DNA of 64,000 nucleotides from Eledone cirrhosa (Eukaryota): assembly GCA_964016885.1 (NCBI GenBank), contig OZ024747.1, forward strand, positions 25,730,001 to 25,794,000. Reading direction: 5' to 3'. How positions within the stretch are numbered: the first letter of the stretch is position 1; each line of letters starts with the position of its first letter. A model generated the notes under the pieces. It saw nothing but the letters and a program-made list of their open reading frames with translations, was not told where the DNA came from and did not search any database. The position numbers and the translations under genes were made by a program. Positions 1-63,332 of the stretch are shown one piece after another.

Positions 1-2254
1 CCACTGTTGTCATTGAAATATGTATCACAACATTATCATTAAAGGACTTTAACATCGGAAACTACTTTGCATTTTCTTATTCTATATATATATATATATT
101 TCTCCCTCTACATCTCTGGAAGAAATCAACTCTCTTCACACCGAGAGAGGGGATGGATTCTGCCAGGTTTAAAGTGCCCAAGACATGCTATATGTTATGA
201 TGGCCCTCCTACAACTCCACCAGGATTCATGGAACAACACATATATACATCAAAGGATTAAAAATTTGCTGTCAGAAAGTAATCACAGAAAAGAAAACAA
301 AAAACAAGCAGAAAAAAGGCAGAATGTAGAAAACTAGGGTTGCTGGAGTTTTGTTCTAATAATATTTGAGACAAGCCACCAGACTCACAACATTATTTTG
401 GGTGATAGTGAGGTTAAGTTGCTAAGATAGGCAAGCACTTTCACCTAAGAAATGCTTAACAGTATTTGTTCTGGCTCTTTATGTTCTGAGTTCAAATCTT
501 TCCAGGGTCAATAAAATAAAGTACCAGTAAAAAACTGGGGTAAAATTGCTGGCCTTGTGTTTAAATTAGAAATTATCATTTATGTTATTGTATTTATATT
601 AGAGGAATATGTTTATTAAGTAAGTAATACAATAATATGTTGAAATCATAGAACCAAATTTTTAGCTCAAGGTTACAACTCAGAGATTTCTAAGCAGGTT
701 TTAATTTCTCATAGGTGGGAGTATATATCGAAAAAGAAACAATGCCAACAATGTTGAATGCACACACACACAGACATGCACAGACACAGACATGCACACA
801 CACAGACTTGAACACACACAGACATGCGCACGCACACACTCACAGATATACACACATCCATACAAATATGAGAACCCATACATACAGCCATACATACACA
901 CACATGCATCCCCATATTCACACTCCCTATACATAGAAGTACATTATATATGTTATCCAAAGGCCAGAGCGCTTAGCACCAGTGCACTGGTACTAAGCTC
1001 TACTGGCCTTGTAGTAGCTACTGTATTGTAGAGACTCATTTTTATTAACTGAGTCTTCCCCCAAACCTATTTTATGGTATCTAAATATAATATGTAATTT
1101 TTTCTCTTGTGACATTTTCCCCCATGACTTTTCCCCTTGGATTCAGCCAGTTTTTTCCTAATCCTTCTTCACCATGATATAATTCTTCCTTCTGGAATTA
1201 TTCCCTGTCAAAGGTTTGACATCTTTACAGAAGTTTAAGCTGAATAACAACAACAACATCCATCTTACAAGGTCATGGACACTCAACTAAACCATTATAA
1301 ATGATATATAGTATATTTGAGACAATGTCAAGACATGTGGTCTCGTGGTTAAGGGTGTTAGGCTCCTGTTTCTAAAGTCAAGAGTTTGATTCCCAGTCTG
1401 GGCAATATATTGTGTTTTTGAGTTAGGCAATTTATTTTACATTGCTCCAGAGTACTCAGCTGGTAAAAAGGAGTTACTATGGCTTTGATGTTGTATTAGC
1501 ATTTGATTTTTCCTTGGACAACAGTATGATATGAATTCTGATAACATTTTTACCAAACTGTTTCGTCTTTTGCATTTACCAATGTCATATATAGTGTATA
1601 TATATATATAGGGTATGAATTGTGATGATACTGGTGCCAAACTGTATTGGTCATTGCTTTTCTCTTGGGCAACATTGGTGGTGTGGAGAGGGGAGACTGG
1701 CAAGCATGGATAACTGCTGATCTTCTACAAAACACTTTATCTGGGATCATGCCTTGGAGAGGAGCTTCCAGCTGCAAACCTATGGGCAACCACAATGGAT
1801 GCCGGCTCATAAACAAAAATATCTGAGACAATAAATCCAATATATCTATATTTATCTTAGACAGATGTGTTAAAATCATAAAATGATATTCTTCTATTCT
1901 TTCATTAGACTGTGGCCATGCTGGGGCACGACTTTGAAGGGATTAAATCTATTATATCAATCTCCTTACCTATATTTTCAAGTCTGGTACTTATTTTATA
2001 CATCTCCTTTTTTAAAACTGGTAAGTTATGTGATATAAACAAATAGTAAACATAAACACAGACATGGATACACACACACACACACATGTATATCATTATC
2101 ATCATCATTTATGTATGTTTTCCATGCTGGCATGTGTTGGACAGTTCGTCAGCATCTAAGACTTGTGCACACACACACTCACACAAACACACACACACAC
2201 ACACACACACACACAAACACACACACACACACACACACACACACACACACACAC

Positions 2255-2548
2255 GTCAATATAATGTTAAAGATCAGGGAAAAGGAAAACATTTATGCTG
2301 ATCTAATGAGGAATCTGCAGATTCTCCACCCTAATTATACCTTTAGATTTATACCTGTCATCATTGGGGACCTCCAATGCGTTATTAACTGCCTCAGAAC
2401 AAATCTTGAGAAGGGGGGCTTACCCCCCCCCCCCCCACATACACACATACGAACAAAAAAATGTCTAGTTAAGATGTTGCTAGTACAGTCTATGTCTATT
2501 AATGGAACTGTAAAATTATGTAAATCTTTTCAGAAATTATGCATGTAA
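2255..2548 (+). mobile_element. C-terminal remnant of an RLE-type (R4/Dong-like) non-LTR retrotransposon
   Basis: REKENIYADL..LQIL.P...FRFIPVIIG.L...GTVKLCKSF pattern of a restriction-like endonuclease tail. Confidence 0.55.
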
Positions 2549-2829
2549 TGACTGTATATACACCTGTATAGATACAGAAACATATGCATGAGTACACATA
2601 TAACTAAAAAATATTTCTGCTCATGTTATAACCATACACGAGTTGAACATCTTTTTTTAGGTGAAACATGTGTTCTGAAGTATGGTTTTGTAATTGTGAA
2701 ATTAAATCTATACCCAACTCTTCATTTGGACTGAGTGCTCTGCCAACTTTGGATATAGCCTTTTTATTTTTCACTACACTATATATATATATATATACAT
2801 ATATATAAATATATATATATATATATATA

Positions 2830-61450: not shown

Positions 61451-62031
61451 TATATATATATATACTTACACGTATACATACATAGATACTTACATTTAAG
61501 TAACTGCCGTACTAAGAGTGAGAAATGAAATTTCGTTTCATTCTATTCCATCTATATATATATATATATATACATACATATATATATACATATATATATA
61601 TATATATATATATATATATATATATATATATATATATATATATATATATATATATATATATATATATATTATATATATATATATATATATATATATATAT
61701 ATATACACATATATATATATATAGATGGAATAGAATGAAACGAAATTTCATTTCTCACTCTTAGTACGGCAGTTACTTAAATGTAAGTATGTATACGTAC
61801 ATACATATATGTATACAGACGTACAGTAGTATGTATATATATATACATACATGCACACATATATATATGCACGTATCGGTTTACCGAACATTTATTATAA
61901 TGCTCGGTTTGTTTGTAAACAAACAAACAGCCCGAATTACGCCGTACAGTGTTTAGAACACACGCTTTGTCCGTTCCCATGTCGATTCAATTTGGATTGC
62001 CTCGGAAACATAACCTTATTATGTAACAAGC

Positions 62032-62102
62032 TGTCTGATGATGTCACGGCACTGGGCGCACCGAACCGTGTGGCCACTGTTGTCATTGAAATATGTATCG
62101 CA
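62032..62102 (+). ncRNA. Minimal hammerhead; its 3' half recurs at 1-30
   Basis: TGT-CTGATGA-..-GAAA-TATGTA-TC^GCA. Confidence 0.55.
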
Positions 62103-63332
62103 CCATTATTATTAAAGGACTTTAACATCTGAAATTACTTCGCTTTCTTATTCGATATATACTCCGTCACTCCTATGTGGAAAAAGTACGTTGAGTGCTT
62201 GAATTGAATTGCATCAATATTTACCTTAAGTATACACACACACACACACACACACACACACACACACATATATATATATATATATATATATATATATATA
62301 TATATATAAAGGCTATATAAACCATATATGTGTGTATATGTATATATACACACTCTTGATGTGAAACTCATCAACCTGATCATTCTGCTGAAAACATTTG
62401 TCTTACCACATGCAATTGCAAGATTATTTCGAGACTTACTGTAGTGGCTTCTAGAAGAATATAGAATATTTACAGAAAACAGAAATACTACTACTAACTT
62501 TTCCTTCTTTGTTATTTATTTATTAAGTCAGGAGGAAGGGGCACTGTTTATGGTCTTTGCAGATCCTCCAAGACAGAATTCTCACGATTTTGAAAAAGCC
62601 AGATAAAACCACGGAGAGTTTTTTTTTAATATCCGTATATTAATAACATGTTATTCACCAGAGAATGCAGTGTCCTTCATATTTAGCATATGTCATTAGA
62701 TCTATTATTACTACCACTCATTCATTTATTTCACATATATTCGTGTATACATCCAAGTTACAAACATTTACATGGCTTCTAGCAATGGACGTTTTCCTGA
62801 CAAAATAAATACCCGCCAAAATTTAGATACACTCTTCTTATTACTTACCATCTTTGAAGAATATATTTATTTCCAATTTTCACGGGGTCAGCTAAATGTT
62901 GTGACAGAGACTCACATTGACCCTTTTTGTTCATGTTGTTCCATAGCAGAGCTCTTCCTTTTCGTGGACGTACCCATATTCCTAATTCTAAGATGATATG
63001 TAAAAGGAAGAAAATATAAATTAGTTGTTTCTCTATATGACCAAGATAACCACAACGGCGATGGGGACGATGGTAATGGAGACGACCAGTCCACCGACGA
63101 CGACGACGGCGGCGGCGGTGGTAGTGGTTTCTAGTTTAGGCACTAGGTCAACAATTTTTTGTGGGAGGTAAGTGAAAAGTCGATTATACGGGATTCAGGT
63201 CTTTGTGAGAGAGTAAAGGGAGTCGTAGGGTCACCGTTCTGACATACAGCGTATCTTGAATTTAAAAAAAAAAACCAAGTGGGACCCTTTCCTCTCCAGC
63301 TTGTAACATAGCCGATTTCTTGGAAAGAGATA

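Follow-up and report, generated by a model that had tools for sequence, protein, structure and literature searches.

What are the many hammerhead ribozyme motifs that lie beside (TA)n tracts in a 64,000-nucleotide (nt) stretch of the Eledone cirrhosa genome, and what moves the DNA that carries them? The stretch, hereafter the window, comprises positions 25,730,001-25,794,000 of contig OZ024747.1 in an assembly of 3.0 Gb; it has 35% GC and abounds in microsatellites, short interspersed elements (SINEs) and fragments of long interspersed elements (LINEs). A first-pass annotation had assigned its hammerheads to one retroelement system of Penelope-like elements (PLEs) and short partners that inserts into (TA)n. 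From sequence, the likely answer is that the motifs are the hammerhead-shaped 3' ends of PLEs of the Hydra clade and of non-coding repeats, the latter copied in trans by a Hydra-type reverse transcriptase (RT)-endonuclease that starts before a twin hairpin.

We searched the window with a strict type I descriptor (core C[U/C]GANGA, stem II, GAAA, stem III, NUH, stem I), using 20 local dinucleotide shuffles as controls. Nine motifs passed, all within the 14 named by the annotation, and none occurred in any shuffle. Their cores lie at 6089, 9028, 20032, 20412, 38710 (-), 39086, 39589 (-), 42884 (-) and 52247 (-); three of them (6089, 9028 and 42884) carry U4>C, and the three motifs annotated as canonical (20407, 20028 and 52186) are all included. 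Four further motifs are damaged copies with better members in their families: core 56767 fails through G8>U, 60406 through a weakened stem I, 62035 through mismatched stems and 40172 through a mutated stem III palindrome, which is AGTACT in relatives. In the last, 59871, stems II and III are present and stem I is missing (1/6 pairs), as it is in its relatives. The annotated count of about 14 type I hammerheads thus holds for nine. Membership of several unrelated families was borne out, with ten families, two represented twice by relatives (20407/60401 and 20028/39470). The label 'minimal' does not suit most of the motifs, as stem II spans 13-96 nt. An Rfam scan of the window returned 98 matches at E<=1, none of them to a hammerhead family, probably because its models miss long stems II combined with short stems III.

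Hammerheads are frequent throughout the genome. An even sample of 100 regularly spaced 10-kb stretches (1 Mb; 80 from C1-C4) contained 72 strict motifs in 32 stretches, compared with 0 and 1 in two shuffles of the sample (bootstrap range 47-101 motifs per Mb). Provided that the sample is typical, the genome would hold about 200,000 intact hammerheads, with a range of 140,000-300,000; motif density in the window is about twice the sample average. The core and all three stems are retained over at least 40 sequence clusters, and of 77 metagenome loci that carry Hydra-type PLEs of other organisms, 48 also contain hammerheads (54 distinct). Stem III is largely palindromic in 69/72 sample motifs, which fits the expectation for dimer-type motifs in the text of PMC4209133. 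Predicted stem III homodimer energies are -16.6 kcal/mol for 20407, -14.7 for 20028, -10.5 for 52186 and -2.2 for 38659/39083. Luense et al. in 2017 are said to have dealt with dimer cleavage.

Six of the 14 window motifs form the ends of Hydra PLEs with open reading frames (ORFs), five lie in self-closing non-coding units and three could be assigned to neither class. Motif 6089 is the 3' end of PLE1 itself (2830-6180, plus strand), which is truncated within its 5' untranslated region (UTR), has TA on both sides and contains a broken RT and GIY-YIG ORF (2919-5039), a predicted cut after 6146 and a short 3' end at 6180. The 3' UTR of PLE1 (5040-6088; 1.1-1.3 kb) is rich in runs of (TG)n, (TA)n and (CA)n, so that the element spreads microsatellite-like DNA as 3' UTR cargo. 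The second element, PLE2, is a head-to-head insert at 52148-56955 with TA on both sides. Its minus arm has core 52247, cut 52193 and a short end, and its plus arm has a broken, 5'-truncated ORF (53872-55739), core 56767, cut 56821 and a long end at 56955. The annotated presence of two RT plus GIY-YIG elements is therefore confirmed. Because both ORFs are broken, the PLE protein would come from intact copies elsewhere in the genome; stop-free 719-aa PLE1 frames number 6 among 150 scored copies.

The PLE1 protein bears R44-W45-K46 (RWK), D121-K122-T123 (DKT), a CxCx5C linker (C562-C564-C570), and CxxC (C665/C668) and CxH (C696/H698) motifs around E and N. These key residues are 95-100% conserved across 109 relatives, and the GIY-YIG residues Y583, Y601-G603, R612, H616, E671 and N687 are 99-100% conserved in 109 sequences. 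The predicted structure of an open-frame copy has a pLDDT of 93, and its four best fold matches are telomerases. By the motif definition given in PMC8557442, PLE1 is a Hydra-clade PLE on sequence grounds; its likeness to a named family was judged by eye. PLE2 in the window retains CxCx5C and CxxC; the RWK/DKT region is missing from this copy.

The remaining ORF-linked motifs belong to families E and F. Family E is present as head-to-head ends at 38523-39183, with core 38710, cut 38662 and long end 38523 on the minus arm and core 39086, cut 39134 and short end 39183 on the plus arm. Family F (42636-44075, minus strand) is a 1.4-kb 3' UTR truncated just before the ORF, with core 42884, cut 42846 and long end 42636. 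Two kinds of link tie E, F and PLE2 to Hydra ORFs: an ORF end lies 0.9-1.5 kb upstream, and copies read through into the start of an ORF. For PLE2, read-through is taken from one locus, L166, the set of candidate loci being contaminated by false anchor matches. The annotation had taken everything outside the two PLEs as non-coding or decayed, which is true of the window copies but misplaces 38659/39083 and 42842, which are truncated end pieces of further PLEs that bear ORFs. Of 70 distinct motifs in the even sample, 22 fall in ORF-linked clusters, 13 in tandem clusters and about half are unassigned; the ORF links of clusters 7, 10 and 23 look like nested insertions and were dropped (22/70 instead of 31). 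An apparent 787-nt tandem unit of E proved to be an adjacent related copy.

The five motifs in non-coding units belong to families A, B and H, which close on themselves and lack an ORF. The units measure 483-485, ~700 and ~1,370 nt, with tandem spacings of 474-499 (A), 695-702 (B) and 1363/1376 nt (H). The longest Met-initiated frames reach 94 aa in A and 34 aa in B, and a profile search of the A, B and H units gave no match below E 0.46; an ORF next to H at L330 was found to belong to another element. Folding gave -198 for B against -142±5 for 15 shuffles, and -101.5 for A against -96.5±4.5. Family A includes a 10-unit array with a 485-nt step, its best 40 scored copies are 99-100% identical, and from these sequences it is very young. 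Its 5'-truncated window copy (20346-20560, plus) has a canonical core at 20412, cut 20485, a palindromic stem III, the short end at +75 from the cut, and TA on both sides. TA also lies on both sides of an older relative (60239-60555, plus; core 60406, cut 60481). Family B is represented by 1.3 units (19416-20329, plus; core 20032, cut 20150, 95-nt stem II, one end at +179, TA on both sides) and by an older, partly tandem relative (39287-40103, minus; core 39589, cut 39475). Family H is present as a truncated copy (61955-62232, plus; core 62035, cut 62099, tail hairpin 62161-62196, long end 62232) and a second fragment at 1-82. In their sequence organization A, B and H are non-LTR-retrozyme-like units. 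The suggestion that the short inserts are non-autonomous partners thus fits these ORF-free families, which carry a PLE footprint, and fails for the six motifs that end autonomous-type PLEs.

Families D, G and I show neither tandem spacing nor an ORF link in 25, 8 and 4 loci, respectively; G and I are known from short stretches (8 and 4), so their 5' structure is thinly sampled. In the window, D (8959-9152, plus) has an inverted tail at 8969-9015, core 9028, cut 9106 and a short end at 9152 at TA52. Family G (40121-40320, plus; core 40172, cut 40200) consists of ~190 nt plus a 35-nt tail and is often head-to-head. The older family I (59750-59988, plus; core 59871) ends at TA94. All eight G copies (L341-L348) start within ~6 nt of one 5' position, and several are near-perfect head-to-head palindromes at that shared start, whereas other families truncate randomly at the 5' side.

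Nearly all of these elements adjoin (TA)n. A (TA)>=5 tract lies 34-210 nt 3' of the predicted cut in 14/14 named motifs, as against 22% of random window positions, in agreement with the first-pass annotation. Its genome-wide form of the claim also stands: in the even sample TA occurs within 200 nt downstream of 57/72 motifs and upstream of 15/69, with controls of 19% (random positions) and 34% (locus-matched), and counting one motif per locus gives 28/32. In the best-scoring genome copies, which were used to map family ends, TA abuts the 3' end in 35/36 cases for A, 29/29 for B, 27/28 for PLE1, 33/37 for F, 25/35 for H (3 rows mis-anchored) and 12/27 for D. Both outer boundaries lie at TA in 19/22 copies of A, 24/29 of B and 8/24 of H, and 62 head-to-head inserts have TA on both sides. 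Empty-site reconstruction was informative in 2 of 62 cases, and in both the paralogue has a TA tract.

Seen from the tracts, 145 of 862 merged TA tracts (17%; 18% of TA bases) touch a known family end, a lower bound, compared with 2/862 in a reversed control. That much of the simple-repeat DNA consists of landing sites was therefore an overstatement: the share is 17%, SINEs and RTE LINEs also lie at TA, and some repeats are PLE1 3' UTR cargo. We rejected the idea that the enzyme makes or lengthens the tracts, as tracts in contact with an end show no greater length (median 27 vs 24 nt, p=0.55) and are more rarely periodic (2/155 vs 53/941). It is common for different hammerhead families to adjoin each other across one TA tract (L002, L009, L035, L247, L295, L312 and others), which reflects repeated use of the same landing site. 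Tracts of (TA)nG units lie beside some inserts (window 19329-19415 and 20561-20710; L221), with no enrichment at the ends of elements in the even sample.

Past the cut, most families show two sharply defined 3' ends: +75/+190 in A, +34/+111 in PLE1, +49/+139 in E and +42/+210 in F, and approximately ~+45/+135 in PLE2 and ~+55/+133 in H. Every head-to-head insert pairs a short end with a long end (66/66; 62/62 distinct after removal of repeats), where independent starts would give that pairing in half; family A, a non-coding unit, obeys the rule in 10/10 inserts. Partial tandems of the pseudo-long-terminal-repeat type, inverted 5' copies and a one-sided tail, all PLE-type features, are present; the tail is already in print as an optional feature. 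Since copies end past the cut with no preferred stop at it, the template probably runs through the ribozyme site. Nor do copies begin at the cut in excess: 3 of 75 shortened copies start at -3 to 0, with 2.9 expected, and a peak seen there in a looser first look vanished in this stricter count.

Read-through copies show what follows the ends within the element. About 8 nt past them comes RYUC, a variable stem-loop, a 2-nt bulge and GARY. An automatic test found this hairpin 3-13 nt after 16/35 mapped ends, against backgrounds of 94/3,840 and 188/7,000 (2.4-2.7%), and the median distance from end to hairpin is 8 nt at both sites. The versions ACUC/GAGU, GCUC/GAGC and GUUC/GAAC all preserve pairing, and the hairpin occurs in coding (PLE1, PLE2, E, F) and non-coding (A, H, clusters 13 and 14) families alike. 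Window examples are ACUC..GAGU at 38586-38605 (minus), 7 nt past the short-end position of E; GCUC..GAGC at 42762-42795 (minus), 8 nt past that of F; and ACUC..GAGU at 56874-56898 (plus) in PLE2. A tail with an ACUC..GAGU hairpin at 2700-2779 also ends at TA, with no recognisable hammerhead upstream.

The 77 metagenome loci offered an independent test. Among their 54 distinct hammerheads, 47 have at least 100 nt after the cut, and 37 of these show the hairpin within 100 nt past the cut, where 200 shuffles gave a mean of 1.1 and a maximum of 6; 20/47 have two or more hairpins, typically at +40-55 and +100-125. L361 and L368 each hold one copy that reads through and one that ends at TA; in both loci the junction is found just 5' of hairpin 1. 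A hairpin is also visible by eye in the published coral element Hydra-2_Amil. These sequence patterns suggest that the twin hairpin is likely a reverse-transcription start signal, and that it points to the helper enzyme of retrozymes.

We propose the following mechanism as the likely one. The GIY-YIG domain would nick (TA)n, and the template RNA would span the ribozyme site, either as an uncleaved tandem transcript or as a re-ligated circle. The protein would bind a hairpin and begin complementary DNA (cDNA) synthesis ~8 nt upstream, aided by a TA-like stretch; hairpin 1 would yield the short end and hairpin 2 the long end, and two hairpin-set starts would explain the PLE 'tail'. In head-to-head inserts, one complex would start two cDNAs, one per side of the break and per hairpin, and the two would join; early stops would leave the many short stubs. 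The ribozyme would cleave multimers to give circularisable units, probably as a dimer formed by way of its palindromic stem III. By analogy with the retrozymes of PMC7229834, as far as its text describes them, we lean slightly towards circles as the template of the non-coding units. More tentatively, with the chances a little short of even, the duplicated hairpin may provide two docking sites for a dimeric, telomerase-like RT-endonuclease, with cDNAs started ~8 nt upstream on opposite sides of the (TA)n break, so that any RNA with the hairpin pair and a hammerhead could travel as a circular passenger.

Several observations weigh against a hairpin-guided start by a Hydra-type enzyme. Strict hairpins are missing from 19/35 mapped ends, of which some, not all, are mis-mapped or duplicated; family B has a single 3' end (+179) with none after it, the tail of G has none, and D often ends in (ATT)n. 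Read by eye, the basal stem is present in the minimum-energy fold at 9 of 18 ends, partly at 2 and absent at 7, including the short end of A. The stem does not vary in other organisms (61/61 GCUC/GAGC) and could therefore be recognised by its sequence. Family A has GUUC/GAAC hairpins, a type that turned up in no ORF-bearing element. On the protein side, the top 50 fold matches of the PLE1 model are all polymerases, and Pfam gave nothing for the PLE proteins, with no GIY-YIG in PLE1, while PF01541 does match its homolog P0002. Other PLE clades and RTE LINEs are also present in the genome. The relevant text of PMC11167929 reports that the start site of the Poseidon element PAc is not homologous to the cut DNA and that its ribozyme is dispensable in vitro.

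Could the hairpins have another role? They might serve DNA recognition by the endonuclease, or translation or promoter function in the 5' UTR, with ends set by TA-like microhomology between target and RNA. TA-like letters do follow most ends within the element, the second hairpin lies shortly 5' of the ORF start, the Drosophila virilis tail is needed for endonuclease recognition (as reported in PMC11167929), and B has a sharp end without a strict hairpin. We nevertheless hold this unlikely: AT-rich stretches occur everywhere in the elements, yet the ends are sharp and keep their median distance from the hairpin at both sites, and the non-coding units (A, H, clusters 13 and 14) need no translation signal yet retain both hairpins. 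It is harder still to see the short pieces as nothing but truncated or deleted PLEs, with tandem units made by local DNA duplication, although ORF-linked families hold 6/14 window motifs and at least 22/70 sampled ones, with about half of the sample unassigned. A, B and H close on themselves without an ORF and are dispersed on many contigs with their own TA junctions on both sides, and A follows the short-plus-long rule, so that a genome without a trans-mobilised class seems very improbable.

Movement of the non-coding units by a different enzyme, an RTE LINE or a Naiad, Neptune or Poseidon PLE, would make the shared (TA)n a breakage-prone or merely tolerated site. RTE (4/6) and one SINE family (11/30) also end at TA in the even sample, where the common SINE1 does so in 14/76; octopus Naiad PLEs target (TA)n according to PMC8557442, in the part consulted; and few empty sites were informative. 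Other PLE-like RT motifs also occur in the sample, namely G.AMG and RY[LV]DD at L094 and L160, and these RTs may be helpers for families without the twin hairpin. As a general account this is quite unlikely, because the internal ends, tail, head-to-head structure and twin hairpin are common to Hydra elements specifically, an argument that is less telling for B, G and I. Somewhat unlikely, finally, is the view of most motifs as inactive remnants that PLE ends carry along passively and that contribute nothing to mobility. In the experiments quoted from PMC4209133, cleavage by PLE hammerheads in vitro is weak, PAc inserts without its ribozyme, copies do not begin preferentially at the cut, and U4>C and G8>U variants exist; against this stand the conserved core and stems across clusters here and in other organisms. 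Relic status would touch the ribozyme-cutting step only and can be combined with hairpin-guided copying by a Hydra-type enzyme.

Parts of this system have close counterparts in print. Craig et al. (2021, PMC8557442) described hammerhead-bearing Hydra PLEs that insert into (TA)n, among them Hydra-1_Obim of Octopus bimaculoides. In the passages seen, that clade shares with the elements here RWK, DKT, the CxCx5C linker, CxxC/CxH around E and N, and GIY-YIG at the C terminus, as well as a canonical hammerhead close to the 3' end, insertion into (TA)n, inverted 5' copies and a one-sided tail, and Hydra-1_Obim and PLE1 look alike by eye. The elements here are longer (~3.5 kb, with 3' UTRs of 1.0-1.5 kb), have tails of 60-170 nt compared with 30-40, and differ in their long stems II and very high copy number. 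The same passages describe no twin hairpin, strict short-plus-long rule or non-autonomous Hydra families. In minimal PLE hammerheads, helix III is short and palindromic, and a dimer is predicted to be required (Cervera and de la Pena 2014, PMC4209133, in part); many solo motifs from truncated PLEs and close opposite-strand pairs are common to both data sets, whereas the motifs here mostly combine a 2-4-bp stem III with a long stem II, and only 59871, which lacks stem I, is of the minimal type.

For animal non-LTR retrozymes, the accessible text of Cervera and de la Pena (2020, PMC7229834) proposes PLEs as helper, 'a strong candidate', and that of Li, Clavereau and Pollet (2026, bioRxiv 10.64898/2026.07.22.740005) argues by phylogeny for a derivation from PLE ends. 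Non-coding tandem units with one type I hammerhead each are shared with those retrozymes as described. Our units, known from DNA alone, exceed them in size (483-1,370 nt), are for the most part scattered in (TA)n as 1-2.5 units, and have PLE-type inversions, tails and a candidate helper-recognition signal; the searched text of neither source mentions cephalopods. Poseidon PAc of Anolis cuts and extends both strands in vitro from two internal starts and requires RNA 3' of them (Frangieh et al. 2024, PMC11167929, in the sections consulted). There, too, two starts downstream of the hammerhead define the tail, a dimer is predicted and the target is AT-rich. The PAc starts lie within the ORF at an AC-rich stem-loop without target homology, whereas those here are in the 5' UTR at a distance of 60-170 nt from one another, each preceding its own hairpin copy and with TA-like letters. 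Neither the strict short-plus-long rule nor the twin hairpin is described in the texts searched, with the supplements of PMC11167929 (Fig. S2C, start-site RNA fold) and the bioRxiv paper outside their scope; in PMC3846280 the word 'hairpin' occurs 0 times.

The window also holds features outside these families. Fragments of hammerhead families that the annotation had not listed lie at 1-82 (the second H fragment), 9205-9332, 42358-42518 and 61846-61946. The second of these (plus strand) is 5'-truncated within the core, has a tail hairpin, lies between two TA tracts and has an intact relative in L039; the third (plus) is a tail fragment of hammerhead cluster 17 that begins at stem III, again between TA tracts. 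Fold-back palindromes resembling miniature inverted-repeat elements are flanked by TA at 46695-46893, 51982-52121, 57063-57513 and 61482-61794, with no hammerhead found within them. RTE-like LINE copies occupy 17100-19320 (plus), 40330-41870 (minus) and 60566-61445 (plus); the first has a PHD-finger-like segment between RT and C-terminal part (Pfam RVT_1, PHD) and terminates in (GAT)n followed by TA. At 8380-8906 (minus) a 153-aa frame (8448-8906) lies beside TA53; it is blank in Pfam and falls in unnamed eukaryotic clusters in Atlas, and it resembles the restriction-like endonuclease end of CRE/R2-type LINEs. A 32-nt tandem array of 20 copies at 63334-63961 seems to stem from part of a SINE.

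Both Hydra PLEs in (TA)n and retrozymes are already known, the latter with a PLE origin proposed for them, and the system outlined in the annotation is mostly known and was partly mis-assigned. What goes beyond the literature searched is the scale, the TA-targeted retrozyme-like units with a PLE footprint, the strict short-plus-long rule and the conserved twin hairpin. Two questions stand open in the texts consulted: which enzyme mobilises animal retrozymes (PMC7229834) and which RNA feature sets the two PLE starts (PMC11167929). The shared hairpin, the short-plus-long rule and a young set of enzyme and passenger in one genome make both testable in the existing in vitro assay. The estimate of 140,000-300,000 hammerheads exceeds the counts found for coral, mussel and axolotl in the sources seen, and at such numbers the elements would shape a sizeable part of this genome's microsatellite landscape. 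If the docking of a dimeric enzyme at the two hairpins is correct, it would reveal which helper animal retrozymes use and by what code they are recognised, and would define a compact cis module for TA-targeted, RNA-templated insertion.

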